From assembly GCA_012295275.1 (NCBI GenBank), contig CM022675.1, forward strand, positions 4,278,001 to 4,342,000: a DNA stretch of 64,000 bases, in the 5' to 3' direction. Both the position numbers and the translations under genes were made by a program. The DNA is from Chrysomallon squamiferum (Eukaryota; Animalia; Mollusca). Position 1 is the first letter of the stretch, and each line of letters opens with the position of its first letter. The notes beneath the pieces are model-generated. The model searched no databases. It worked only from the letters and a program-made list of their open reading frames with translations, and was not told the DNA's origin. Shown here in pieces: positions 15,323 to 61,439 of the stretch.

Positions 15323-18300
15323 TTTTATTTGAAAGGTTGATGTATGATTTTTTTTTGGCCTATGTAAGATTTATTTTATTAGATGCAGTAAAACTGTTAA
15401 GATTTGCTATAATCCGTCTGTTAGACATCACTGGTCCAAACTTAGCAGAGAGGAGGACAAGACTTTATTATATATTGTAACATTTTATTCTCAATCTTTT
15501 TTTGACAGTTTTTAGTTTCAAACATCTCTTTGACAAGAGAATATACCACAGCCTTTGTAACACAAACTGTGGAGTTTTGTCTAGAACAGGAAATAGGGAA
15601 TTTTGTGTAAAACAGTTTCATGATTTTAGTTGTGTATATTGTGTATATTAAAATATACTTGAGACAATGACAAATCTTGAAAACTGCTATCTTGAGAGAC
15701 ATTTCATTTCTAAAGCTAAGAACACATCTAGGAAAACAGAATTAAAACCAGATTCTACGATTTTTCTATGAGGTTTGATTGGATTCATATTACAAATTGA
15801 TTATTTTCATTTAGGGGTATGGTAGACTGGATAACTAAGTAGATTAATTTGAGAGGGATGCTGTATTCAGATTTTTTGTGGAATCCAGTACTAACTAGAA
15901 ATTTCTTGTACATTGTGCATATGAGCATTTGAACCCTGACTTACAAAACAAAATACACTATTTACATTTCCAGTCAATATCTAACGAAAATCAAACAGAA
16001 TTACTTTTGATTGTGCTCATTATATTCAGGTGACTTGCCAATGTTCACAAAACCTTCACCTATAATCCGGTTGCTAGGCAACACCAGAATTCTCTGAGAA
16101 TTTATGAATAATCATCTAACAGTAGCCAGCAGTTCTCGCCACTCGATGAAGTGTCGAAGTGCTGGGTCCTGGACAAATAATTGATTTTTCTCTTCGCCTA
16201 CACATCCTGGTCACTTCAGTTTTGTTTACATGTAGACGTTTAAAAATGACTTGAGAAAAGGAAAAAGATATAAGCAGTAATTAAAGGGATATAAGCAAGA
16301 GTAAAAGGATATTGGAAGGGATATTACTTAGCAGTATGAATCAGGTAATATATTGAGATAGAAATGTTTGGTTTTGTGTTGACAGTGTTGACATATTTCT
16401 CTGTTATGGAATCTCTTACAGAAGTATGTAATTTAAATAGCACATATGGATGTCACATTTGTTTCATTCTTAAAATATACATCAGATGATGCTGTCAAAT
16501 GTTCTAATACATGTTGTGTGTGTTTTTCAAGAGATGGTTTTGCTAATGGTTATTTGAGGTCATGTGAATAATCAATAACATTACATATTTTGTTTAGCAA
16601 TGTATACTCACTGCATTTCTTGTTTCACAGCACCTCAGTTAGCAGTAACTCTAAATACAAAGGTGACTTCCCATAAACAGTAAAACATTTGGAAGAGCCT
16701 TTGATAAGCCATGGTATGTACTGGCTATGAAATGTAAAAGATCCTTGCTGCTGGTTGTAAAAGAGTAACCTGTGAGTGATGGTTTGATCTTTCATCAGCT
16801 GTTTTTTTTTCTGTCTGACATTAGACAACATGTTGATTTCAGATGCTAACTGGTTTCCTTTCTGTCTGACATTAGACAACATGTTGATTTCAGATGCTAA
16901 CTGGTTTCCTTTCTGTCTGACATTAGACAACATGTTGATTTCAGATGGTAGCTGTTTTTCTTTCTGTCTGACATTAGACAACATGTTGATTTCAGACGGT
17001 AACTGTTTTTCTTTCTGACATTAGACAACATGTTGATTTCAGATGCTAACTGGTTTCCTTTCTGTCTGACATTAGACAACATGTTGATTTCAGATGCTAA
17101 CTGGTTTCCTTTCTGTCTGACATTAGACAACATGTTGATTTCAGATGCTAACTGGTTTCCTTTCTGTCTGACATTAGACAACATGTTATCTTCAGACGGT
17201 AACTGTTTTTCTTTCTGTCTGACATTAGACAACATGTTGATTTCAGATGGTAACTGTTTTTCTTTCTGTCTGACATTAGACAACATGTTGATTTCAGACA
17301 GTAACTGTTTTTCTTTCTGACATTAGACAACATGTTGATTTCAGATGCTAACTGGTTTCCTTTCTCAGAGAGGTTCTTAACCATTTGTTTAATAACAGCA
17401 GCGAATACTGAATACATTAACTATATTAATACAGTGGTACCTTGAGTTGTGAGTGCTCCAACTTACAAGAGTTTCGAGTTTTTGCTTTGAGTTGTGAGCC
17501 GAAATCCAAGTTATGAGCAAATTTCAGATAGGTCACAATGAACAACACAACATCTCAAAAGAATCCCATGTCTCACTCATTTACTTCACGTGGTTACCTC
17601 CCCATGGAAGCATCTCTGTTGTGTTGTGCTTGTGTTTTGTGCACTGTTTTGCCAAATTTCCATGGATCCTAAGAAACTGAATGCAAAGGACAGTGCAGAG
17701 AAGAAGAAGCAGATGATGTCCATTGAATTAAAGCGTGAAATCATAGAAAAACATGAGTGAGGTGTGCATATAGTCGACATGGCTAGTCAGTATGAGTGTA
17801 GTACTTCTAGGATATGTACCATACTGAAGCTAAAGGAGTTGATAAAGGCTATAACACCAACCAAAGGCGTTAATATAATTTTTCTGATCTCCAAGATAAA
17901 TACATTTTACAAAGCCAATTTATTTCTTTTCATTCTCATTTATTTTGTTTTTATAATATTTGTCATTTTTAAATACATTTTTCTTATTTAAAAATACATT
18001 ACAAAAAAAAAAAAAAAAAAATTATTAAAAAAAAATGGTGTGTTTTGGGGGAGCTGCAATGGATTAATGGTATTTCAGTTAATTTCAGAAAAAAAAAAGA
18101 AATTGTAATCAGTTTTAAAATATGTAGTATTTTTTATTTTGTTTGTGTACTAAGTATGCACTGCTGTAAGTTGTTCTGTTTAAAATCAAAGTTTAGTTTG
18201 TGTTATGTCAGTTTTTATTTACAAAAGAATTACTGGTTTCTTTCATTAACCGCAAGTTATGTGACTTCTGATTGTTGTCAAGAACCTGGTTTATGTTTGT

Positions 18301-33138: not shown

Positions 33139-36039
33139 CATGTATTATGTTTATACATACTTACACATATATATATATACATACAAACATGCATATATAC
33201 ATATTTACATAAGTACACTCACACACATAAATACACACACACACACACACACACACATTCACACACAGATATGGATATAGACATAAACATTTACTTAAAT
33301 AAACACCCACTTAAATGTACAGGTAAATGTATTCAGTTCGTACATTAGTTCTCATGTTGTCAAGGTGTGTTTTAACACCTGAGACAGAGTCGTCAGCCGC
33401 TACAGGTGAAATGAATGAAGTTCTACACCTTTATCTCTACTTTGATTGCCGTGAATAAAGGAAAGGAAAAATTGATTGCCTGGAACAAGGATTTGAGTAG
33501 TGAACTGATAAACCGCTGTTGTGCTTTGTCCATGTAACAGGATAATCCAGACACAAAGTGAATATAAAGTTTAACAGTCTCTTGAGAAATGGAAAATGTC
33601 AGTGACAGAAGAAATTAGTTTCGGTGATTTGAATTTGAAAATGAGTTGAATGGTGACTGAGTTATTTTTATTTATTTTTTTTTTTTTTTGAACAATGGAA
33701 AGATGATGAATTTGCAGATTTTCTAAATGAGGAGGAATGTGATGATTTTTTCTGAACAAGGGACTGTGTTGTTTCCTAATTAACAGAATTTACAACTTTT
33801 AAAAAAGAACAACAGTTTACAGTTTCTAAATGAGAAAGATGATTTTTCAGAAGAAGAAGAAATGCACTGACTTTGTAAACAGGAAAGAAATATTCAGAGT
33901 TTTTAAGTAGCAGGTAAAGTGCTGTCTTTGTTTTCTGGAGTATTTACTTATTTTCTCAATGGCAGCGAAAGTTCACTTTCTAAATAACACACAAACTTCT
34001 CGGTTTTCATTTAAAAATCATCTCACTTTGCGACTGATTATTATTTCAAAATAGCGGATACACTTACTCTCAATCTCCACTGAAGAATAATCTGAAGACA
34101 TGAGACATCAGTGATAAGATTTATTGATTTTCAGGTGTTTCTGTTTTTGTCTCCATGACAACGATCTTGTTAGTTTGACAATTTTCAGTATTTGTACATC
34201 TACACATGTAGATAGAAGCAGGATGTGTATTCTGAGGATACCATGTTTTTTCATTCACATGTGATAGTGCTGGTGTTTCTAATTCTGAGGAAGAAACTAG
34301 TTTTATTAGAATTATTTTTATTTGGTGCAAAGTTTTAGATGTGATAACAATCATAGTAATGTTGTGTTTGGAGAGATGAAGTTTTAAAGGTTACGTTATT
34401 TCTAGAAATTAAATTTGGATTAAAACTAAGATTTTTATATATATATATAGAATTAACTTATTGTTACTGATGTCGTGATTTACAAAACTAATAACTAGCA
34501 GTTGGTTAAATATTTTCAAATCTAAGAAAGATTAAAGAAAGACAAGAAACATTTTTAAGAAAAGAAAGAAACAAAAAGGTTTTTGAAATCAAAGTCTGTA
34601 CTGTTTGCAGTTTAATAATGATAGTAACTGTTAAAATTTTCTTTAGATAAATTGTCTTTAAAAATCTTTTTTTAAACGGACTGATCAGTATTGAAGTAGA
34701 AAACCATTCTTTCTAAAAAAAAATATTAAAAGTAATAAATAAAGTATTTTTAAAACTGAACTTGTTTTAAGAAAAGAATATAAAATAAAAATCTCCATCC
34801 ATCAAAATGTCAGAAACTGAGCAAAATCGAAACTTAATTCCTTATGGGAGGACAACTCATCCTGGAGGTCAGCTGAAGTTCAGTCCCTTGGACAGATATG
34901 ATTATTCAAAGCACAGTCCAGACGGGAAACCTCTTCCGTTTGTTATTCCTTACGTCACAGTGAAAAAACGGAGTGACGGAAAATACATCGTCATCGAGAA
35001 ATATCCTCGCAAACTTCAGCCTGTTGCCCCGGTAACCCAGGAGCATTCTCCGTGGAACCTAATGAAGTTGAAAAACTCCTCGGAGGTGAAGTTCCGGTCA
35101 GTAAGACCTCAGTGGAAGTATTCTATGTGCGTCAGTTCGCTGACCAAGCGAGGCGGTCAGAGCAGGGAGTTGCCCAGCTGCACCCTGCCCTGGAACGCCC
35201 GTCCGAAGATCGGATCCCTGGACAACTACGACCACCAGCCGGGCGGAGGGCAGAAGAGAATATTCTCGGAGAAAGTCGCGTGGACAGCGAGCTCGAAGAT
35301 TGGTTCGTTTGACAACATCGACCACCCAGTGAAACACTGGCGAAGTCAGAGCGAACCACTGAAACAGGGCAACAACACCACGATGACGTTTCCCAAGCTG
35401 AAAAGTCGTTACGGTGCTGCGGCCAACATCGGCATGCTCGACAATGTTCATTACACACCAGGGGGCGCCACTGTGGTGAAACGGAAACAGAACTTCGAGC
35501 ACGTCAGGTCAAAGGTTGGATCTTTGGACGCCATTGACCACATTCCTCAGGGCGGAAACAAAAAGATTCCGACGTTCAAGTGTCGCTGGAACGCGAAGTC
35601 GAGAATCGGGTCGTTTGACAACATCAGCTACAGCCCCTCGGGTGGGGACGTGCTCTTCCTGCAGGAGAAACTCAGCTGGGACGGAAAATCAAAAATCGGT
35701 TCTTTGCAAAACATTTCCTACCAGCCGAGAGGGGGGCGAGTGAAAATCCCGCACTTCAAAACAAACTGGCGGGCGAGGCCCAAAGTGGACTCGCTGGAAA
35801 ACATCCACCACACTCCAAGGGGAGGTAACTATGTTATTCCGAGTAAGAGAGTGAAGTGGAATGTGAAATCAAAAGTGGATTCGTTGCCGAGTAAGAACAA
35901 ATCAAATTCTCTGTCGCCTGACAACTCTGATTACTACGTGATGCGCGACTGTAAGTTTTAGTAGCTTTGTCTTTACAATAGTCAGTAACAGAATGTCTAC
36001 TTTTGTAGTTTTACATACATAGATACACAGAGAAATACA

Positions 36040-44590: not shown

Positions 44591-45847
44591 GTCATAACAA
44601 CTCTTACATTATAAATAAATTCATAAAAAATAATAAATTAAAAAGGTAAACTAAGTATATCTACATCTGTAACAAGAAAGTGCAATTAAATATAACTTAT
44701 ACAAAGCATGTTGCAGATACACAAACACACAGACACATGGACAACAACAAAATATATAAATATAAAATGTATTGATTATTAAATAAATGGAAACCAGATT
44801 TTATGAGAATAAAAAGTGTTACATACAAAATCTAAACATTTCTAAAATAGAAAAATAAATTTATGTCTAAATATGACAAACAAAATAATTCTTTCACTTA
44901 GGTTTTCAAAAGAAATAATTTCTAAACATTGTAAATTGTTTTTATTACATAAAAAATAAATGTCAGGAAAACATACATGCAAACATACGTACATATATAA
45001 TAATTATAATAATAATAACAAAATTATCTAATGTTTGAAGAATAAAAACATTAAAAAAAAGACTTTTCTACACAAAAATAAAAAGTTAAAACAGCCCATG
45101 AGTTTACGTATAATATTTTGTGTAGAATTAAACAAATTTACATATATTTCACAAATCACAATAACACCATGATATTTTTATTTTGTAGTACATATTACTT
45201 AGAAGAGTGATAAATATGTTTGTAACTTTTGTTTTTTTATTATCAGCAGGGAAAAATTTATTTAAAAACCAACATTTACGAGAATATAAACATTTCTGGT
45301 ACATGTATGTAAATATTTCTTATATGATCTGCAATTAATTAATTTAAAAAAAACAAAGTCTAATTTTTAACAATATTTATAAAATGCACTATTCTGTCAT
45401 ATTGTAAAGATCTGTAATACATTTTGTAAAAGCTTACACTGCCAAACAATAAGTAGATTCTATTGTTATTAAATAATAAATAGCATTTAATAAACAATTC
45501 ATATTTAAAAACTACACAATATAACAGTATCACTGCCACTATACTACACAACATGTTGTAACAAATAACACTACATTCCATATAACATGCTGGTTTATAT
45601 AAAATAATGTTACACTGGTTTTGTACATAAAGTTACATGTAACGTTTGTAAGGATATGAAATAACCAGTTTTCTTACAATTCTATGTATAATGCATCTGA
45701 ATAAATAAGCGTAATATGACAATGCTGTATACACATGTTTGTAAACTAGTTAAAGCAATATGGAATATCTGTAATAACTTAAACCAAAATGCCTTGTCAC
45801 CATGTTCTGTTCCTGTTATACCTGTACACAAAAACAAAACAAATAAC

Positions 45848-45879
<32 letters not shown>

Positions 45880-46451
45880 GTATAATATTAAAAAAGGAAA
45901 AGAAAAACAAGAAGAAGATATTTATGTTGGTCTTAACATAAATATATCTTTTTTCAAGTGATTTGATTTTTTTAAATTTATACTATCCTATTTGTACGTT
46001 TTCAAATATCAGTTATTAAACCCATGTAAAAACTGCAGGGCAGCACTTTCCACAATTTTAATGCATAAACCTGTAAAATATGCTGTTATTTACACAGTTC
46101 AGAAATACTGACATACTAGATAATAAAATCATTTTATTTTTAACACTGACTCTGTGTTAATATTATATTATTAACCTTTTTAATTTATTACATGTATGTA
46201 TCACATCATATCATGTCACATCATATATGAAATCATATCATATATTATATCACATCATATATATTTGATTCTATTGCATAAAATAATGTTTATATTGTAT
46301 CCATTTTATTTCATTATTATTATTATTATTTTTTTTTTTATTATTATTTAATTAATTATAATTTCCATTACTTTTAAAATTTATTTTATTTCTTTACAAA
46401 TATATTTAAACTAAAATAATAATGTGGCAGACTGAGCCATATAAAACTTAC

Positions 46452-46492
46452 CTGTAAACTGATTACCAGTCATCAAGTTTGTGACTCTCAAT
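46452..46492 (-). CDS. Mini-tau last coding exon IESHKLDDW*, followed by a probable 3'UTR intron
   Basis: attcag acceptor; IESHKL resembles tau IETHKL; TAA, then CAG|gtaagt 11 nt later; candidate next acceptor ttttacag at 46071-46078. Confidence 0.8.
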
Positions 46493-49163
46493 CTGAATAA
46501 CAATAACAATAACAATAACAACAACAATAACAACAATAATAGGAATAATTGTAACGATAATTTTTTTAATATTAATAATAACAAAAATATTTAAAAAAAA
46601 TTAAAAAGAAAACAATAATGATGGTAATAATGAAAATAATAATAATAATTTAATAATAATGATAATGATGATAATAATACTGATGATGATGGTGGTGATG
46701 ATATTAATAATAATAATAATGATAATGATGATGATGATAATAATAATAATGATATTAATAATAATTGCAATAAATAAATAATAACAATGGCAACTATGAT
46801 GACACAGCAACAAAGAGAAATGATTCACACAAACATTTCAGTATAACGTACATTTCAGTATCACACAAACATTTCAGTGTAACACAAACATTTCAGTACA
46901 ACACAAACATTTCATTGTAGCACAAACATTTCAGTATAACATACATTTCAGTATAACACAAACATTTCAGTGTAACACAAACATTTCGGTATAACACAAA
47001 CATTTCAGTATAACACAAACATTTCAGTATAACACAAACATTTCAGTGTAACACAAACATTTCAGCGTAACAAACATTTCAGTACAACACAAACATTTCA
47101 GTATAACACAAACATTTCAGTACAACACAAACATTTCAGTATAACATATACATTTCAGAACAACACATACATTTTAGTATGACACAAACATTTCAGTATT
47201 ACACAAACATTTCAGTTTAGCACCTACATTTCAGTATAACACCTACATTTCAGTATGACACAAACATTTCAGTATGACACAAACATTTCAGTATAACACA
47301 TACATTTCAGTATGACACAAACATTTCAGTACAACACAAACATTTCAGTATAACACAAACATTTCAGTATCACACAAACATTTCAGTATCACACAAACAT
47401 TTTAGTATAACACATACACATACATTTCAGTGTAACACAAACATTTCAGTGTAACACATACATTTCAGTATAACACATACATTTCAGTGTAACACATACA
47501 TTTCAGTGTAACACATACATTTCAGTGTAACACATATGTTTCAGTATAACACAAACATTTCAGTATAACAAACATTTCAGTATAACACAAACATTTCAGT
47601 GTAATACAAACATTTCAGTACAACACAAACATTTCAGTACAACACAAACATTTCAGTACAACAGAAACATTTCAGTGTAACACAAACATTTCAGTCTGAC
47701 ACAAACATTTCAGTGTAACACATACATTTCAGTATGACACAAACATTTCAGTATGACACAAACATTTCAGTATATCACATACATTTCAGTATGACACATA
47801 CATTTCAGTGTAACACATACATTTCAGTATGACACAAACATTTCAGTATGACACAAACATTTCAGTATAACACATACATTTCAGTATGACACACATTTCA
47901 GTATGACACATACATTTCAGTATGACACCTACATTTCAGTATAACACCTACATTTCAGTATGACACAAACATTTCAGTATGACACATACATTTCAGTATG
48001 ACACAAACATTTCAGTATAACACAAACATTTCAGTATAACACATACATTTCAGTATGACACACACATTTCAGTATGACACACACATTTCAGTACGACACA
48101 AACATTTCAGTATGACACATACATTTCAGTATGACACCTACATTTCAGTATGACACCTACATTTCAGTATGACACATACCTTGGTCTGACCACCACCAGC
48201 TACGTGGGCTGCATTGTCCAGAGATCCAACTTTAGACTTTGCATCAACTTTCACTTTCTCATCAAACACCTGAAATGGTTAACTCACATCTTCAACAACA
48301 TAATTATTCCAAATTATATCACTGCACATTAATACATTCAAAACTTTGAATTCCACAAGATACTTTTACTGCAGAGAGTGAAATTAATATAAAATAATTA
48401 TTTTAAATAGATTTAAATTAAACCTATCGCTGTTGGGAAATTTAGATAAATGTTAAAGTTTTAAACTATAAATAAATAAATAAATAAATTAATTAATTAA
48501 TAATCACCTTTTCCTGACCACCACCAGCTACATGGGCTGCATTGTCCAGAGATCCAACTTTAGACTTTGCATCAACTTTCACTTTCTCATCAAACACCTA
48601 ATAAATAATTTAAAAATAAAAAAGTTAATTAAATAATGATAAAAACAACAACAATAATAATGACAAACAAGAACAAAAACAATAATAATAATATTTTCAT
48701 TTTAAATATTTCAGAAAATAAATAACAAAATTAATAAATTAAAAACTACAAAAGTATTACTAAAATAAAATAAAATAAAATAAAATAAAATAAAATAATG
48801 ACTTTTTCTTGTCCACCACCAGCTACATGGGCTGCATTGTCCAGAGATCCAACTTTAGACTTTGCATCAACTTTCACTTTCTCATCAAACACCTAATTAA
48901 TAATGAAAAAGACAAATAAATAAATAAACTAACAATTTTTTTTAAAGAATTTAAAACATAATAATAAAAATTAAAATATAATAAGCAAAAAAAAACCAAA
49001 CAAAACCCAACAACAACAAATAAATTAATAAATAAATATAAAATAATAATTATATGTTTTTATAATTTGTAATTTATTATAAATGACATCATAATCTGTA
49101 ATATTATATTATCATAATATTATTATTTTTTAAATTATTCAAGGCACAAAAAACCCTAATAAT

Positions 49164-49198
<35 letters not shown>

Positions 49199-49546
49199 AT
49201 AATAATAATATTACTAATGATAATAGCAATTATTTTAAATAAGTTAAATAAAATAAAATAAAATAAAATAAAATAATGACTTTATCTTGTCCACCACCAG
49301 CTACATGAGCTGCATTGTCCAGAGATCCAACTTTAGACTTTGCATCAACTTTCACTTTCTCATCAAACACCTGAAATGTTTAACTCACATCTTCAACAAC
49401 ATAATTATTCCAAATTATATCACTGCACATTAATACATTCAAAACTTTGAATTCCACAAGATACTTTTACTGCAGAGAGTGAAATTAATATAAAATAATT
49501 ATTTTAAAAATATTTAAATTAAACCTGATGTTAAAGTTTTAAACTA

Positions 49547-49589
<43 letters not shown>

Positions 49590-51514
49590 ATTAATTAATT
49601 AATTAATTAATTAATTAATTAATAAATTAATAAATAAATAAATAATTAATAACCTTTTCCTGACCACCACCAGCTACATGGGCTGCATTGTCCATAGATC
49701 CAACTTTAGACTTTGCATCAACTTTCACTTTCTCATCAAACACCTAATTAATAATAAATATATAAATAAATAAATAAATAAATAAAAGATAGATAAAAAA
49801 AATAAACAAATAAATAAATAAAATAATATTAAATAAAATAAAATTAAATTAAATTTTAAAAGAAAATAACAGTAATAAGTAAAATATAAGATAAACAAAT
49901 ATGAATAAACAACCAAAAAACAATAAATAAATATTTTTATAATTTATTATAATTTATTAGTTCCAGTAAATCTACATCATAATAAAAATAAATTTTACAA
50001 ATTATCCATAAAATAATGTTTTTTTTTTTTTTTATCCACATCATCAAAATTATCAGCATACAGAACCAAACAAAAATAAAATAAAGAAAAATAAAATAAA
50101 ATAAAATAAAACAATACAAAATAAAATAAAATAAAATAAAATAAAATAAAATAAAACAATACAAAATAAAATAAAATAAAATAAAATAAAATAAAATAAA
50201 ACAATACAAAATAAAATAAAATAAAATAAAATAAAATAATGACTTTCTCTTTTCCACCAGCAGCTACATGTGCTGCATTGTCCAGAGATCCAACTTTAGA
50301 CTTTGCTTCAACTTTCACTTTCTCATCAAACACCTAATTAAATGATAAATATAAAAGTGTTATAAAATCAGTCTTCTCCTTCTCCCCACTCAAATAATAA
50401 TAATAATAAAAAAAAGGCAATTATTTTAACTGAATTTGATTACAAATAAAAATGTATGAATAATGTTTAACTGCAAATTGAAAAATGAAGCTAAAGCCAA
50501 AAAAGAAAAAGAAAAAGAAATTGTTATATGAATTTGAAAATGTGGAATTAAATTGTATATTTTTTTCAAAGGTTGTAGTTATTATTTTTAAATTGTATAT
50601 TTTGTTCAAAGGTTGTAGTTATTATTATTAAATTGTATATTTTTTTCAAAGGTTGTAGTTATTGTTATTAAATTGTATATTTTTTTCAAAGGTTGTAGTT
50701 ATTGTTATTAAATTGTATATTTTTTTCAAAGGTTGTAGTTATTATTATTAAACTGTATATTTTTTTCAAAGGTTGTAGTTATTGTTATTAAATTGTGTTA
50801 TAAGGCAAACATCATCAGTCCTCATTATTAGTTTATTTATTCTAAATATACATTATCACAAATACTGAAAGAAAAAATAACAATAATAATAATAATAAAG
50901 AAGGACAGAAAGACAGACAGACATATACAGATTGAAACAGACAAGCAGACAGCCTGGAGATAGACAGAGAGACAGACAGACAGATCAGACACAGACACAT
51001 ACAGACAGACACACAGACACACACACACATATATATATATACAGAAAAAGACAGACAGCCACATGGACAGAGACTTAAAGAAATACAGACAGAAACTGAC
51101 AAATATACACAGAACTCCAGACAGATCAGAAAGAGACACAGACAGACAGACAGACATAGAAACATACAGCCAGACAGACATAGATACAGAGACTTACTGA
51201 CAGACAGATAAACAGGCAGGCAGACAGAGAGCCAGAGAGACAAACCAGAGAGACAGAGACAGAGAGAGACATATATTTAGAGAGAGAGAGAGAAAGATAG
51301 AGAAAGACATGTTATTATTTAATTGGTTTTCTATAACAAACAGAAGAAGACGCACTAACAGACAGTTGGACACCCACTCATTAAAAAACTACCTTGGTTT
51401 TTCCTCCACCTGCAACATGTTTTGCATTGTCCAGTGATCCAATCTTTGACTCAATCTAAACACAACAAAACAGTTTTAGCAAAGTATGCACACATCAGTC
51501 TCTTACAGCTCCTC

Positions 51515-51555
<41 letters not shown>

Positions 51556-51816
51556 ATGTGACAGCTGAGAAGTACACGAAATGCATACATATATGTACAA
51601 AACAATCATATATACATACACACACATGTACAAAGATACATATGTAAATACATACACACTTGTATATATATACAGACACATACATAAATATATACATATA
51701 TTCATATATACACATTTACACAGACACACTCACACACACACACACACATATGCAAACACATAGACATGTGTAGGGTACAAAATAAATTTAGGTTATATTA
51801 CCTTCTTCTTTGACAT
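46463..51816 (-). CDS. Minimal tau-like protein (~215 aa, 7 repeats); complement(join(46463-46492,48180-48269,48508-48597,48803-48892,49281-49370,49654-49743,50244-50333,51393-51455,51802-51816))
   Basis: MSKKK | [21 protein letters not shown] | 6 x VFDEKVKV[D/E]AKSKVGS[L/M]DNAAHVA[G/A]GG[Q/K][E/D/T]K | IESHKLDDW*. All junctions are AG/GT and phase 0, with an in-frame TAA just upstream of the ATG. Confidence 0.85.
46826..48179. repeat. 19-bp satellite, ~70 copies; its first minus-strand unit starts at the donor of exon 48180-48269
   Basis: acacaaacatttcagtat[a/g] repeated. Confidence 0.95.
48180..50333 (-). CDS. Array of six near-identical 90-nt tau-repeat exons (50244-50333, 49654-49743, 49281-49370, 48803-48892, 48508-48597, 48180-48269)
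   Basis: Each begins ag|GTGTTTGATGAGAAAGTG. Donors in transcript order are gtcatt, gttatt, gtcatt, gtcatt, gtgatt, gtatgt. Confidence 0.9.
50551..50797. repeat. 40-bp tandem repeat, ~6 copies
   Basis: aattgtatatttttttcaaaggttgtagttattgttatta repeated. Confidence 0.9.
51393..51455 (-). CDS. Mini-tau repeat exon [21 protein letters not shown]
   Basis: tgtttag acceptor, AAG|gtagtt donor, 63 nt. Confidence 0.9.
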
Positions 51817-51842
51817 TATTTCAGTTTAATGTATGGATTCAC
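51802..51842 (-). CDS. Mini-tau start exon (5'UTR + ATG TCA AAG AAG AAG)
   Basis: tttctag acceptor, AAG|gtaata donor, ATA-ATG context; phase 0 joins 51455. Confidence 0.7.
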
Positions 51843-51981
51843 CTAGAAATTAATTAACAATATATTTATATTAAGAAAAATACAATGATAATGAATTTCA
51901 TTGCTTTATTAATTTTGTATTATAATTATGATAACAGTAACAAAACAAAAAAAGCAAAACCAATCAATAAATCAATCAATC

Positions 51982-52068: not shown

Positions 52069-52415
52069 TTTATTTACTTATTAACACCTTTTTCTTCTTT
52101 TCTTTTTTTCGATCATCTAATAAATATCTCACTTCGATTTTTCAAGCTAACAAAATCAATCAGATATAACAGAGGACTAAATACGTTATGTCATTACTTT
52201 TCAGATAACAAAGTTTTTGTTATTTAAATGCACAAAACAGCAATGATTTTATGTGACCAAGAATTTGATATAAGGCATTTCGTAGGAAAAATATCTACCT
52301 AACCTGCATCTGTACTTTTTCGGACTAACCTTTTTATTTTCGTGGACAAAATGGGAGTGAAAAGACCAAAAACACTTACTGACGTTTATTTTACAACGTA
52401 ACCAGTGTCTTCCAG

Positions 52416-52469
52416 TGACGTCAGTAGACTGGTTCTCAGCGAAAAGTAAAACATAATAATTATATACAT

Positions 52470-53209: not shown

Positions 53210-53825
53210 CACTAAGACTGATATGTTGCGTGAAAAAGGTCAAAGGTTGTATTTTGAAATAAGACACTATGTCATTATATCCAAATCTTCACATAATTTA
53301 TCAGCTTTGAGACATCCTCAAGTCTCAAAATAAAGTGACCATAAGTGTGCCTGTGAAATTAAACTGTGTACGTATTTATATTTTGGTGTGTTTGTATGAG
53401 GGTATCTTTAGAAGTATGTATGTATGCCTGTATGTATTATGTAAGTATGCATGTGTACATGTATATATTTATGTATTTATGTACAAAGACAGACTCATAT
53501 AAATACATACAAATAAAGTAAGCTATTATTTAAATAAATTCAAGCTACTTACATTAGTAAAATGGATGTATCACTTATAATTATACCAACACAAAATTAC
53601 AAACAGTGTATTCTGTAATACACGTATCCATTCATTGATAAACTTGTGTTGTAAGGTTGCTAGGTGTGTAGGCTGAACGTTTCAGTGACGAATGTCATCT
53701 CGTGACCTGTTTTCCTCTTTCTATTAATATCTACTTCCTGGTTGCTTTAAACAAACCTGTTTTTACATCGTCTTGTGTAAGAAGTTTCGTATATAAAAAT
53801 AAAGAGAAGAAAACAAAAAGAAATA

Positions 53826-56800
53826 ATGAATTTACTAACAGCAGTGATTATATTTACGATCTACAATCAGGTTACAGGTACAGAAAGACTAAGTAAGTTT
53901 ATTATTTATTTAAAATTAATTTATTTGTTGTACTTCAAGTCATTTGAAATATGTGTAAGGCTAGGGGAGATAACTTAAAATGTTAAATTTTATTTAAGTT
54001 TTATTTATTGATTAATAGGGATTTTAGAATTTTTATTTCTTATACATGACGATCATATTTCAACGTTAAAAAGCAGACTTTTTTAAAAATCATGTCTAAT
54101 GAATGTTTAATGGATTTTTAACATGAAATACTGGTAACATAGTTAATAACAACAACAACAAAAACAAATAACAATAATGAGGACATTGATGAAAACAGTT
54201 TAACTCAGAGTTTCGATTTAAGATAACATGTTTTAATATAACAGTAAAACTTTACATAATAGAATAAACTAGCACGTTATAACATCGTTTAAAAATTAAA
54301 TATTTACTATAAATTCTATATTACATAATGTACGCTAACATAACTTAATTATAACTTGTAGTATAACATAACATAACATAATATAACTAAAATAATAACA
54401 TAGCAATATTACATATTACAATATAACATAACTTGATTAAAGCATACCATAACATAAAAAAGTAAGTATTTATAAATTTCTACAACATATTTCAAAATAA
54501 ATAATTAAGATAAATATTAATAAATGAACACAGGTCCGTGGTCTGACAGAAAACAAGAAGAAATGTTAGAAGAATATTTTACACTGGATAAAAAACAAAC
54601 TTGGTGGGAGGCAGCGTATTCTGGCTGTGAGGAGGCAGGAGGCAGACTCGTTGTTCATCATTCTGGTTTAGACTATGACAAACTTTTTTCTCAGATGAAA
54701 TACAACACAGACTATTGGGTAGGAGCTTTAGAGACGTTTACACCTTGGATGTGGACTGGTAGGTATTCTTTTATTATTAATCTCAATGTCGTTTACAAAA
54801 TAAATAATAGTTTACTGTTTTATTAAAGTTTTACTTTATAATTTAATCATTATCAACGATTGTGTGTTTTCAACATTTTCCGAGCTAAGACACATTTGTT
54901 TTACATTAAAAAAGTCGTGAATCACACCACCAACGAAAACAGTTACAAAATGACACATACGCAAAGACAATTTAGTCTCTCAGTTTATTTACACTCACTC
55001 AGTGTGAAACCTGGGACTGTTGAACACAAAGCTGATATCCTAGCAGGAATTGAAGAAAGGCACGTGCGAAGCTCTTCAACAGCTCTCAGTCGCTCTCAGT
55101 TTTTAGTTTTTATTGCAGTTATGAGCTCACACAGATAAGTTGTGGAAAATGGGGGCAATGTCGAAATAGCTCAGTTTGCCACAATGGGGAAGTCCTTGTC
55201 AGCAGACAACAAAAAATGATCAGCCAAGCTTAGCTTTAAACGACGGTCTTGTCTCAGTTCAGTTAGTACCTCCTGCTCTTGTAAAGTCTTGTCTCAGTTC
55301 AGTTAGTTCCTCCTGCTCTTGTAAAATCTTGTCTCAGTTCAGTTAGTTCCTCCTGCTCTTGTAAAGTCTTGTCTCAGTTCAGTTAGTTCCTCCTGCTCTT
55401 GTAAAGTCACGTCCATTCTGAAAACTGCTGCTGAGTTACATGGGTCTCTAACCCAGTCAAGGCTTTCAGTGGAAGTTGAGGTGAAATAGAATGACAACTT
55501 ATCCCTCAAACTTTTACCTATTATCTCACACAGTACAGCAGTGTTGACATCTCCCAGTTATTTCTGTGTGAGTGGGAACGCGTCCAGGTTGGTACTTTAC
55601 AGATGTTGTTGCGACAGGCAGACCTTTAAACGGAATCCATTTATTGTATCTGTGTTTATGAGCAGGTTTTCATTTCGGCCTTGCATTCGTATGTGTTCAG
55701 TTCAGTCAGACGCTGAAATATATCTGCCATGTATGCCAGCCTTGCACACCACTCATCTCTTACAAGCAGCTTTGTTAACTTCTCATCAGTGAAAAACTCT
55801 TTTAGTTCGTACACGCAGCCAGCACGTTTCCGCACGACAACCATTTGTCCTCCATTTGGAGCTGTGAGGCTTGATGCTTTGTTCTCATTTCTTCTTCTGT
55901 TGTTTCTCGTGGCGTTGCCTTGGAAAAGAGGAAGTTTTTTCTGATGACGTCGCCAGCCACAAAACACACATTGGCCAGGAGCTGAACATGTCCACTGACG
56001 TCAGTAGACTCATCAAGTTGCAGTGCGTATCTTTTCCAAAACAACCTTTTCTGTGTCTGCGGACACGTCATCAATTCGTCTGGCAGTTGTGTTAGCTCAC
56101 AGAGGACTTTGACTACTTCTTTAACCGCGTCAGGGCTGAACATCTCATTTACAACGGCTTTGAGGTCAGGTAGTTTTAATGTCTCTGCCTGTGTGCGACT
56201 TTTTCCAATTTGGCTACAAGTTCAGCTACTAAGTAACTAGCTTTGAGAGCTCTCACAGACACCGTTGTAGTTTTTCTCCTAAAGCCTGCTGTTCCTCCGT
56301 GTTTTTTCGCAGGAAACGAAATTAGTTTGTGTTCTTGCTTTGAAGTGACGAATATTTCGTTTGGAGATGGTGTTTAAGCATGTTTCTGACCATGCACTGT
56401 TGTTAGCCTTTTGTCCACACACCAAGCCAACAGTTAGTGCAGCAGGATTCCAATAAAAGTAAATGGAAACGAAAGATAACTTTCACTGTTTTGTTGAAAT
56501 CAGCGAGTTTGCTTTCTTTTGACCAGCACCAACATATTACGCTTTTCACCTGGGTTACAGTTTTGTCCAGGATCCAGTTCGGAGTCTTCATTTTTTCAAA
56601 AATTCGTCTATCGCTGTACGTCTTCTCGACGTCACCTCTCAAATACATCACTAATTCTACTGTCTTAACTTAACAACGTCATTATTGCGGCTCTGATGCA
56701 GCCTGAAGGTCAATACATGGAAGAGTATTTAATTACTTCGCCAGACACAGACGCACAACCATGGCAGTTTACCTGCAGTAACTCAATCATTTCTTTCTTT

Positions 56801-56914
56801 TCTGGACTAATTAAGTTAAGTTGGATAATTTCCCACGGCACAGTCGTCTGCAGCGGCACAGTGTTTGAAAATCACTAATCTACGAAACCACTAATAAGAG
56901 CTATACACATCAAA

Positions 56915-56945
<31 letters not shown>

Positions 56946-57486
56946 ATAGTTGCTTTATTTTTTTTTTTTTTTTTTTTTTTTTTCTTATTTCTTATTTTTT
57001 TTTACTTATTTATTATTAATTAATTTTTTTGTTTTGTATATGTGTTGTTCTTGTTTTCAGAGACCAACGACAAATTATTCCAGTATGTTGGCGATATCGA
57101 CGTTGGGAGTTTGAGTAGTAAATACACAATACAAGACAATGATGCTTTTAAATGCTTCCAGCAATGTAAACCGAGCAATGGAAAAATTGGTTTACAGGTT
57201 GGTAAATTCTTCTCCTCATAAAGACTAATTTTAAAAGAAAAAGTGTTAAATATATACTTGTTTGATGTTACCTGAATCACACACAGACAAATGGGACACA
57301 CAGACAGGCATACTTCTAGTATTAAACTGTCACTGCGGCAACCTATACCACTACTTCATCTACTACTACTATTACCACTTCTACCACTACTACTACAAAT
57401 AATCCTTCTTTTTATTATTATTATTATTGTTGTTATTATTATTATTATTATTATTGTTATTATTATTATTATTATTGTTATTGTTA

Positions 57487-57562
<76 letters not shown>

Positions 57563-60500
57563 TCCTCTTGTTGTTATTGTTGTTGTTGTCGTTGTTGTTG
57601 TTGTGTTCATACTTTAATTGTAAATTTATTTCCACATTTATTCCAGGTTATTTTTTGTTATTATTGTTATTTAGTTCGTGTTTTGTAGGGAAAGCAGTGT
57701 TACTGTAAAATCTCTGACACAGCAAGTCCTGTGAAGTCAACTACAAAACGAGTTCGATGTGCAGGGACATATGAAGAATTCTGTGGAGGACGAAATACAA
57801 TTTCTATTTATAGAACAGGTGACACTAATAACTTTAACAATTTTTAAAATATTTTGGTTTTTTATATTATTTTATTAACATCAGTAGAGCAAACGAATGT
57901 GTGAATATTTGAACAAACGAATGAATGAATGAACGAATGCCCGAAAGGAAGAACAGATCAATACATGAATGAATGTATAGAGTCTGGAATCAATATGCAT
58001 CGATATAGTGATAATTATAACAATATATAAATTACTTCATTACAGATCTTCCGTCTTCAGTTACAATCGACGACAGCGCTGACGGAATCAACCGCTGCGG
58101 CTACGTCAAGCTCAATTCTGACAATTTTACAATTGGTTTTCAAAACTGTGACAGCTACAAAGCATATACACTTTATACAAGTAATAGTTTTCACAAAGTT
58201 CAAATATCTAATCAATAAATAAATAAATAATCTGATAATGATTATTATTATTATTATTATTATTATTAAAGAACGATGTAATATCAAAAATGAAATAAAA
58301 TGAAATCTTCCTTCATTGCAACATCATATTCATTATCTCTTTTTAGATTACTGCTGGAATTCTGAAACTTGTATTTCACGGTGGAGGATGACATGGAACT
58401 ATGCAAACAGATTTTTTGACATGTTTAAAGTAAGCAGCAGTACAGTCTCATCACTGCAGAATCTGCTACAAACAAATCTTTACTACTGGATTGGACTCCA
58501 CAGAGATGTCAAACTGCTGTGGATTGATGGTAATGTGTATACATCTTGTGTTGTTTTTGGGTCTTTGTTGTTAGTTATATTTATTTTTTCATTGTTGTTG
58601 ATAATCTTTATTTAATTGATGTTTGTGTTGCTCCTGAAAGCGACAAAGAATAGATATTCAGTATTTGTTGTTACTTCTTCCTCTGTGTAAAACAAAATTC
58701 TAACGTACTTGTTTTAAATCTTGCAGGTAGTGTGGTATCGTTTCAGAAACCAGTTTCAGAAGGTGATCTTAAAAGGATGGTATGGTTAACAAAAAATAAC
58801 AAATTATATTACAATTACAAATCAGACCAAACAAATCCAGCTATTTGTCAGAAATGTAAGTATAAAACAACACAGTAAAACAAATTGTTAAAAAGTCGAT
58901 TTGTTTATTAATTAAAAATAATCACAGAAAAATCGACCCATTTACAAATATCTATATCTCTAGCTATGTGCTTGTGTATTTGTATGTTTGTATGTACTTA
59001 TTTATGTAAAATGTAAAAGTATTATGTATTATAGCATGTATGTGTGTATGTGTTGTGAAATAATAACTATATATAATTTAAACTACTACTACTATAACTA
59101 CTAATACTAATACTACAATTATTACTACTACTACTACAACTACTACTACTACTACTAATAATAATAATAATAAAGTTAAAATATGACATACAATCTTTTA
59201 ATAAAACAAAAACAAAACAACAAACATCTTCTTGAGATAGTCTTTTATGTATTTACAGATAATGTAACTACACCAGTAACAACGTCCACATCAGTGGCAA
59301 CACCTGCGAAACAAACACAGAAAACAGCAGCAACTACGCCAAAATTGTCAACTTCCAAACTTTTCTCCAATCCGTCTTTTTCTTCTGATTTTGAACCAAC
59401 AACATCAGGGGAGATAATTCCAAGGCAACAATCCGCTGAGACACAACATCCATCAAACAAATCAGGTTAGTTTTAATTTTACTATTTTGTTTTACTGGTT
59501 ATAACTAATTTTATTTCACTAATTTTAAGTTACTAGGTACATTTCTTTTTAGATTTTATTCTTATTTATTTATTTATTTATTTACTATATTTATTCTGCT
59601 AACTTATTAACATTATTTAAATATATTTTCATTTTTGTATTCCTTTAATTATTCTTTTCTTTTTTTCTTCTTCTTTATTTAACTCTCCAGATTTCTTTTA
59701 TTTTAATATTTTTAGTAATTTGTTATATAATTTATGTGAAAAGGGGAAAATAATCCGTTATATTTGTGTCAAAATTAAAAATATACATATTTGGACAATA
59801 AGCGACGAAATTAAAAAAAAAAATAATAATAATAATTAATAAATAAAATAAAATAAAATAAAATAAAACAATCAAACATTTACATAGATAACTGTACTTA
59901 GATTAAAATCAATGTTATTATGTAATTATTTTCAGCATCTATTGGTGGTGGTGTCGCAGCTGCTGTAGTGCTGTTGGTTGTCATTGTTGTCGTCGTAGTT
60001 TGGACTAAACGGTGAGAATTTGTTAAAACCAGTCACTGAATACAATTATGAAATTCATGAACCAGAAAAATAGGAGACAAATAGGCTGAAATATGAAAGA
60101 AAAAACAGAAGAAAAAAATAATGGATGAATTAAAAAGAAATAAAAAAGTTTTCTTTATCATGTTTGTTAGAAAAGTTAAGATAAAATTAAAACATGGCGA
60201 AGGAAAAAGAAAGATAAGAATGAAAGATTGAAGGATACGAAAGAATAAAAGAAAGAGAAAGAATAGAGGTAGGAAAGAACAAGAAAGACATGAATAAAAA
60301 TAATAAAGTCAGATACAAAGGAATGAAAGAAAGTGAAAGAAAAGGATATGAATGAAAGTAAAAAAAAATAAATCTACGTATTTCACTGTTACTCTTTTTA
60401 GTTAATCGTCAGTTTAATTTGAAATGTAAAATAGTTTTTCCTTTGAATTATCAGAGTCGTCACGACAGAAACTCATATAATAAAACTAACTTAGTATTTC

Positions 60501-61439
60501 ACAGTTTAAATTTAAATAATGTCTTCATTTTTCAGAAAAGGTCAATTTTGTTTTAAAACTCAGAAGTTACCAGAATCAAGAATTAATTTTAACAACAGAA
60601 ACAATGAAATCAGCTCTGCTGAAGATTTACAACGTGGTCACACAAATTCGAGTTATGAGGTTACAACGACATCGACGTCGGCAGATTATGAATTTGAATC
60701 AGAAAATCAAGGAAACCACAGTGTTTACTACAACGTCCCAAACGGAGTTACAGTCAACATGGAAAACAGAAACGATAACGACTACGACATCGCAGATGTT
60801 AAAGCACTTCCCATTAACAGATCTACTGCTGACGACAACGATGGAGACAACGACACACCGTATATCAACACGGCAACGACTACGACATCTAAAGTGGACA
60901 AACACGTTTCAAGCAGTCATGAAGGCGACTACGACAGCACAGACTCAACAAATACAACAACTCATAGATCTAACATCTACAACCACCTTGCTGGGGACAA
61001 CGACGGTGACTACGATACATGTGATAAGAAAAAGAAAACAACTACGTCTGATGTCTACAACCGGCTTGGTGTTGACAATGACAGCGACTACGACAGCACA
61101 AATAGAGAAAAGACAACTGCAACTGTATCCGACGTCTACAACCACCTCGTTGATTCTGAAGACTACGACAGAATGGACAGGATACCTCCAACATCAACAA
61201 CAACATCAGAACTGTATAACCATCTTGATCAACCTGACAGTGACCTCTACGACATCGCTGATGCTGTTACATCCGATTTACCACACCCCAGTCTGTGTAG
61301 ACATACTGCCTCGTCTAGCAATCATATTCCCACTAGGAAATCAGAAATCTCTGATAACGTCCACGACGATTCCTACAACAACGACAACGTTTCTGAAGGC
61401 AGCGGAAATTTTTATTTTGTTCTGGAAAATTCTGATTGA
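53826..61439 (+). CDS. Type I membrane receptor, ~730 aa: signal peptide, C-type-lectin-like + WSC + C-type-lectin-like, S/T stalk, TM, Tyr-rich tail; join(53826-53892,54534-54758,57061-57197,57689-57818,58046-58180,58347-58529,58727-58855,59259-59465,59936-60011,60536-61439)
   Basis: Phases chain without stops. Hydrophobic N-terminus MNLLTAVIIFTIY; CTLD motifs TWWEAA..C...GGRL, YWVG, W.W and YWIGL..WIDG..ICQK; WSC motifs C...C, GLQGKQCYC, C.G..EEFCGG....IY; TM IGGGVAAAVVLLVVIVVVVVW followed by TKRK. The exon 1 donor could alternatively lie after 53877 (same phase). Confidence 0.85.
54862..56876 (-). mobile_element. Decayed hAT (Buster/Charlie, ZBED5/ZBED8/FAM200-like) transposon in intron 2 of the lectin receptor
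   Basis: Fragments YALQLDESTDVSGHVQLL, LAYMADIF, PFSTTYLCE...TAIKTK and QVSH* (stop ~54999), with frameshifts. Degenerate terminal sequences gtgtgttttcaac / gtttgaaaatcact. Confidence 0.85.
55247..55408. repeat. 39-bp tandem repeat x4 inside the hAT relic
   Basis: gtcttgtctcagttcagttagttcctcctgctcttgtaaa recurring at 39-bp spacing. Confidence 0.9.

Follow-up and report, generated by a model that had tools for sequence, protein, structure and literature searches.

A gastropod tau-family gene predicted to encode little besides microtubule-binding repeats

Each repeat of tau lies along a microtubule protofilament across the interface between tubulin dimers, and four identical repeats bind in tandem (10.1101/267153). 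Repeats alone bind microtubules weakly (PMC2136754); the pseudo-repeat R' is possibly the strongest binder (PMC9299549), and without it the off-rate rises by a factor of more than six (PMC5221586). What the repeats achieve without their flanks and what their PGGG motif is for are open matters in tau biology: PGGG is not visible on the lattice, and its role is called unsolved (10.1101/267153). Among the closest described systems are constructs: K18, a repeat domain without flanks, and the synthetic R1x4 and R2x4, which consist of tandem identical repeats (10.1101/267153). Here we describe mini-tau, a predicted gene that resembles both, located on the minus strand (51816-46463) of a 64,000-nucleotide (nt) stretch of the genome of the gastropod Chrysomallon squamiferum (contig CM022675.1, positions 4,278,001 to 4,342,000; hereafter the window).

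We consider it reasonably probable that mini-tau is a gastropod tau-family gene, transcribed and spliced at its 3' end, whose predicted repeat-only product is a weak, fast-exchanging protofilament tether between tubulin dimers. It differs from K18/K19 and from R1x4/R2x4 in being a natural gene, with six to seven repeats of 30 amino acids (aa), without VQIINK/VQIVYK, Cys or Pro and with a much lower net charge. Molluscs are known to have 7-10 tau repeats (PMC8985376), but full-length mollusc tau carries hundreds of projection and Pro-rich residues and a full R', whereas mini-tau has 5 residues before its repeats and 9 after. Teleost MAPT (Notothenia, 7 repeats) has likewise raised its repeat number by duplicating phase-0 exons (PMC4815063); unlike in mini-tau, the duplicates remain inside full-length tau. 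The literature searched, chiefly open-access, held no description of a natural repeat-only or proline-free tau, and the supplements of PMC8985376 and PMC4815063 might list short mollusc entries.

Exons and predicted product of mini-tau

Mini-tau has nine coding exons, and all eight coding introns are in phase 0 with GT..AG ends. Scanning all six frames for motifs, and searching with a profile derived from the repeats of the window itself, placed seven repeat exons between 48180 and 51455 and detected no further ones on the minus strand of the window. The ATG exon (51802-51843, read from the sequence) follows an acceptor AG, codes for MSKKK (51816-51802) and ends at the donor AAG/GTAATA. Repeat 1 is a 63-nt exon holding the repeat core only (51393-51455; PF00418 37.4 bits), nine codons shorter than the 90-nt exons that code for repeat 2 (50244-50333; 36.2 bits), repeats 3, 4 and 5 (49654-49743, 49281-49370 and 48803-48892, each supported by the joined frame), repeat 6 (48508-48597; 39.6 bits) and repeat 7 (48180-48269). 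The stop exon (46452-46492) codes for IESHKLDDW (46492-46463), with TAA at 46465-46463 followed by 11 nt of untranslated region (UTR) and the donor CAG/GTAAGT. A 630-nt GT-AG intron in the 3' UTR (45822-46451) separates it from a 3' UTR exon (45550-45821) that continues below 45550. An earlier note on this DNA, made from the letters alone, had proposed an anatomy of MSKKK, seven repeats and IESHKLDDW, and the nine exons with their intact joins bear this out with two refinements: the seven repeats are six full ones and one core, and the product, which does stop after nine residues instead of continuing into a C-terminal tail, ends in a stub of the pseudo-repeat R' (compare IESQKL.., which starts the R' exon of the neighbouring tau gene at 38448). 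An assembly artefact was ruled out: copies of the exon are 1-11 nt apart, and the introns vary in length and sequence.

The predicted protein has 215 residues: 5 at the start, a 21-aa repeat core, six near-identical 30-aa repeats and a 9-aa end. It contains 39 Lys and 34 Asp plus Glu (one third of residues charged; computed pI 9.06), no Cys and, as had been claimed, no Pro, with AGGG in six of the seven repeats and AAGG in repeat 2 at the PGGG position. The five Lys and five Asp/Glu said to typify a repeat are found in four of the six 90-nt exons; the others have 6/5 and 5/4. Net charge per 30 aa is +1.0, compared with +2.2 in five main-gene exons, +2.0 in Haliotis tau and +3.6 in three vertebrate family proteins; six of seven comparison proteins lie between +2.0 and +3.8, and Lingula stands at +1.4.

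Three of the seven repeat exons were scanned against PF00418, and all three score 36-40 bits (curated cut-off 27). Tau R4 is the closest match of solved structure, and a search of the ESM Atlas returned PF00418 clusters only. The KXGS core and the N and H contact residues are present in every repeat. The absence of a projection domain, a Pro-rich region and a C-terminal tail holds for the predicted product, which has only 5 residues before the repeats, a stub and stop in place of a complete R' and tail, and a canonical PGGG end in none of its seven repeats. As predicted, then, mini-tau is a member of the PF00418 tau/MAP repeat family outside the canonical tau/MAP2/MAP4 architecture, and from its composition it is expected to be disordered.

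Protein searches (the best 120 of 335, 150 of 670 and 120 of 558 matches), together with cluster members, yielded 350 family proteins. A homologue, which the earlier note had thought worth seeking, did not emerge: none of the 350 is an orthologue of mini-tau, the best single repeat being identical at 20 of 30 positions. A word-based search with one exon and 10 intron codons, a weak query, gave two candidates and no relative. Mini-tau is the only proline-free protein among the 350 and has the highest repeat cover (0.95; next 0.84 and 0.79) on a profile that includes its own repeats and so favours it. Haliotis rufescens LOC124115086 (XP_048238298.1 / XP_046331874.1) shares the KXGS cores with mini-tau and has AGGG in six of seven scored repeats, with a best repeat identity of 18/30. 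Short repeat-rich PF00418 entries occur in Mizuhopecten (XP_021368829.1, 88 aa), Clydaea (KAJ3203076.1, 186 aa, partial; repeat 20/30), Rhizophlyctis (P0074, 266 aa) and Lineus (P0057, 321 aa). These scallop, chytrid and nemertean entries resemble mini-tau in that repeats make up 57-84% of their length and the N-terminal part is short or missing; unlike mini-tau they keep their prolines, several are partial or unverified, and none is an evident orthologue. Multi-repeat PF00418 proteins, some nearly without an N-terminal region, are also found in chytrid, glomeromycete and mucoralean fungi (P0125, P0074, P0094, P0032, P0061), and two unnamed proteins of 445-458 aa (P0011, P0017), with 11 repeats and flanks of just 15-40 residues, form another repeat-dominated type within the tau family.

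That the loss of the PGGG proline is special, as the earlier note implied, is not supported. Ala occupies that position in 73 of 940 repeats from 245 family proteins and, after Haliotis and Lingula isoforms are added, in 154 of 1359 repeats and 91 of 347 proteins; full-length Haliotis tau accounts for Ala in six of its seven scored repeats. Judged by these alignments Ala is a common natural variant, and it is the combination in mini-tau that is unusual, not the substitution.

The number of repeats may vary. Exons 3, 5 and 6 (repeats 2, 4 and 5) have the weak donor AAA/GTCATT, which matches 6 of 9 consensus positions, compared with 7-9 for the other six donors of mini-tau and 7-8 for six donors of the main gene. 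Since all repeat exons are in phase 0, skipping any of them keeps the frame, and because three have weak donors, products of 4-7 repeats (125-215 aa) are possible. Repeat-exon skipping has a precedent in Haliotis tau, whose isoforms (1469-1619 aa) differ by multiples of 30 aa.

At the 5' end, the acceptor of the ATG exon lies at 51843, an in-frame TAA is found four codons upstream of the ATG at 51816, and the start codon has A at -3. A candidate non-coding first exon (52380-52430, minus strand, start undefined), likewise read from the sequence, ends at a GTAAGT donor. It contains TGACGTCA at 52416-52423, for which we claim no promoter function: the surrounding 20 nt recur in a transposon remnant (55991-56010). 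Tandem repeats occupy parts of two introns, with a minisatellite of ~1.3 kb and a 20-nt unit (about 46830-48175) filling most of the last coding intron and copies of a 40-nt unit (about 50550-50800) in the second.

Transcription and origin

Contigs from four sequencing runs, three of RNA (all one study) and a fourth of unrecorded kind, were placed on 45550-46520. A 163-nt contig of run X3 covers the stop exon (46449-46481) and jumps 630 nt to the next exon, the ends of the jump being GT..AG on the minus strand. The 3' UTR exon is covered by contigs of two of the three RNA runs. Only this exon is covered in run X4, and the fourth run shows no joint there; X2 has no contig in the interval and X1 leaves the stop exon uncovered, gaps that prove nothing. 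The RNA runs' word shares with the window, 0.02-0.04, were not counted as evidence. The 3' end of mini-tau is transcribed and spliced, and the gene is probably expressed; of the spliced transcript foreseen by the earlier note, the removal of the intron after the stop exon was observed, in X3 only.

The X3 contig begins with 47 unplaced letters; 11 of them would be the rest of the stop exon, which leaves 36 unexplained. We simulated a de Bruijn assembly (k=31) to predict the length of such unexplained letters upstream of the stop exon. The prediction is 36 when the last repeat exon is assumed to carry its sisters' allele at one synonymous site, 195 when none of the sisters is expressed, and 400 with the intron unspliced. 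Given that allele, the simulation hints at a splice between repeat 7 and the stop exon and at the presence of one or more sister repeat exons in the RNA.

The synonymous divergence between mini-tau and main tau repeat exons is 0.5-0.9 per site, with frames and motifs intact, so the split between the two should be old. The six 90-nt exons, as their sequences indicate, are young copies; one duplicated pair of introns has just 5 differences over 215 aligned sites. In a tree of 49 repeats the six copies group together (100/96), while their source is unsupported and 27 of 42 forks are open. Mini-tau probably arose long ago, when part of the neighbouring tau gene was duplicated in inverted orientation, and its exons then duplicated in tandem more recently.

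Microtubule binding and competing readings

The tubulin contacts of tau's strong region are S258, K259, S262, N265 and H268 (10.1101/2020.11.10.376285), and all seven mini-tau repeats have their equivalents. Lattice binding is plausible because these residues, S-K-x-G-S..N..H, are kept throughout. Of the earlier proposal of a repeat-only tau acting as a modulator or lattice binder, the repeat-only gene therefore stands and the lattice role is plausible; by analogy with tau, binding would likely be weak and brief.

The following mechanism would be consistent with these features. The repeat exons are there, their frames and splice sites intact, and transcription and splicing were observed at the 3' end. 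Translation from MSKKK would then give a disordered protein of 4-7 repeats, depending on which phase-0 90-nt exons were included or skipped. As in tau structures, the S-K-V-G-S..N..H core of each repeat would dock where two dimers meet, so that each dimer takes up one repeat and binding gains from avidity. With the Pro-rich region missing, R' reduced to a stub and each repeat carrying a net charge of about +1, the off-rate would be high; polymerisation might be promoted more than stiffening, and microtubules, not being spaced, could pack closely. MARK kinases are specific for KXGS, and with seven KXGS sites and zero SP/TP sites the protein might be controlled by MARK/PAR-1-type kinases only.

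Several observations weigh against this reading. The missing orthologue among the 350 proteins means that cross-species conservation is lacking. Mini-tau has Ala in place of a tubulin-contacting Val two residues ahead of SK (10.1101/2020.11.10.376285). In favour of the gene, exons 2 and 8 differ with pS 0.64 and pN 0.11 (p=0.0005), but this pN/pS signal between exon 2 and the others could predate mini-tau; no selection could be demonstrated within the set of six 90-nt exons, where site counts give p=0.02-0.12 and the pairwise pN/pS of 0.23 comes from non-independent pairs. RNA support is confined to the 3' end, with the coding-exon junctions and the 5' end unobserved, and the splice joint after the stop exon appears in one of three RNA runs. 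The RNA contigs are only 90-99% alike to the window, so the RNA is from another individual or a close species, and the de Bruijn simulation with the window's own alleles predicts 55 unexplained letters, not 36.

An alternative is a transcribed relic, a partial duplicate in decay whose exons duplicated neutrally and recently and which yields hardly any protein or none. The missing orthologue, the three weak donors and the truncation of both the first repeat and R' fit such a relic, and the exon copies are so young that their intact frames tell little. We nevertheless regard it as unlikely: motifs are intact despite a near-saturated synonymous distance from the main gene, all nine exons are open, all eight coding introns are GT-AG and in phase 0, the start codon has A at -3, and spliced RNA is seen at the 3' UTR intron. 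In addition, a stop codon close to the last junction escapes nonsense-mediated decay under the 50-nt rule, and that of mini-tau lies 11 nt before it. It is more doubtful still that the true protein is longer, with upstream coding exons that bypass the MSKKK exon and add an N-terminal domain. It is true that the ATG exon, having an acceptor, is internal and that the 5' end is unseen. However, the six other ATG-started frames listed between 51456 and 53900 as reaching a phase-0 donor are just 1-28 codons long and of unconvincing sequence; when donors were scanned up to 64000, the only coding-like minus-strand sequence upstream was the transposon remnant; and the next gene, a C-type lectin receptor, starts head-to-head on the plus strand at about 53.8 kb, about 2 kb upstream of the mini-tau ATG. 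Together with the in-frame TAA, this leaves little room for extra upstream coding exons, in keeping with the earlier note, and a hidden N-terminal domain is unlikely.

If mini-tau is a real gene, its main partner could instead lie off the lattice: the protein might bind soluble or curved tubulin oligomers or actin, and buffer or compete with the adjoining full-length tau. The tau site is preserved in bent tubulin, an action of PGGG with actin or with unassembled tubulin has been proposed (10.1101/267153), and near-neutral repeats (+1.0 per 30 aa) would weaken attraction to the acidic lattice surface. Yet it is PGGG that is tied to those partners (10.1101/267153), and mini-tau has lost its proline while keeping the lattice contacts in all seven repeats, which makes this alternative rather improbable. 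A self-assembling functional amyloid or filament protein is scarcely credible. The absence of proline, the near-identical tandem repeats and the near-neutral charge could favour in-register stacking, and the earlier note allowed that the protein may self-assemble; that the loss of PGGG predicts this is not supported. In human tau the turn matters by shielding VQIVYK, which is necessary for amyloid formation by the repeat domain (PMC6555816), whereas all mini-tau repeats have a charged sequence of the EKVFDE type at this hexapeptide position, and no VQIxxK motif occurs in the predicted protein, which in this respect departs from K18/K19-type amyloid domains with their VQIINK/VQIVYK. Two or three residues at the hexapeptide already separate tau from MAP2 (PMC5049617). 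The best hexapeptide score in mini-tau is 0.19, as against 0.43-0.49 in three vertebrate family proteins (AGGRESCAN scale), one third of residues are charged, and abalone tau tolerates the same Ala. From its sequence, then, amyloid formation or self-assembly by mini-tau is unlikely.

Within the preferred reading of a weak lattice tether, we tentatively propose a stronger form, which is possible but would need more to be true: mini-tau would be a translated 'naked-repeat' tau, one of three tau units at the locus, in which both jaws and all prolines have been removed and the loss offset by multiplying one repeat, and which would not aggregate and would pack microtubules without spacing. If so, the flanks can be replaced by avidity alone, and lattice binding does not need PGGG. 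Repeat expansion in molluscs, Ala in place of Pro and exon duplication are all known or common in their own right, which limits the surprise. Since it lacks flanks and prolines and its six full repeats are near-identical, mini-tau would also be a ready-made reagent: identical repeats avoid the averaging problem of cryo-electron microscopy, and variants with Ala changed to Pro or with added flanks could probe the roles of PGGG and the flanks.

The tau locus and neighbouring genes

The window is AT-rich, intron-rich animal DNA (GC 20-41% per 2 kb) and contains three tau-family units: a full-length gene, an intronless 384-aa repeat open reading frame (ORF) and mini-tau. Such a three-unit gastropod locus contrasts with the literature consulted, which treats invertebrates as mostly single-gene. 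The full-length tau-family gene (3783-38576, plus strand), the likely parent, was delimited by tblastn with Haliotis rufescens tau (P0124) and a repeat map; mini-tau lies tail-to-tail with it and with the nested ORF. The full-length gene has repeats of the PGGG type, preceded by a projection domain and a Pro-rich region, and its R' exon at 38448 is complete; it shares with mini-tau the layout of one repeat per 90-nt phase-0 exon. This gene is orthologous to Haliotis LOC124115086, and because its own repeats are of PGGG type and those of Haliotis mostly AGGG, the Pro/Ala state varies between lineages.

The intronless ORF (34807-35961, plus strand) lies in the last intron of the full-length gene, on the same strand, and matches PF00418 at 205.8 bits over six stretches. 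Among the matches listed it has gastropod relatives at 36-68%, the best named ones being Haliotis asinina (46%), Elysia (43%), Batillaria (40%) and Patella (39%); those relatives are 320-410 aa long throughout gastropods, and bivalve ones are more distant. In Nucella, a repeat-rich protein (ACOMHN_016956) has a locus tag adjoining that of main tau (ACOMHN_016955), which suggests that the arrangement of the two is conserved. The arrangement could be that of a nested gene or of an alternative last exon yielding a many-repeat tau, and the ORF is possibly as interesting as mini-tau itself.

The C-type lectin receptor gene head-to-head with mini-tau (about 53800-61439, plus strand) was recognised by a Lectin_C match, its other exons being assigned by eye. 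Lectin-like exons lie at 54524 and about 58330; a Ser/Thr-rich stalk is encoded near 59260 and a transmembrane exon is placed near 59940, and the cytoplasmic exon is long and rich in Tyr-Asp motifs. One of its introns contains a broken transposase-like remnant (about 55490-56640, minus strand), which by its motif may be of hAT type. Lastly, an intron of the main tau gene holds a tandem repeat with a period near 54 nt (about 16600-17320) that is open in several frames.

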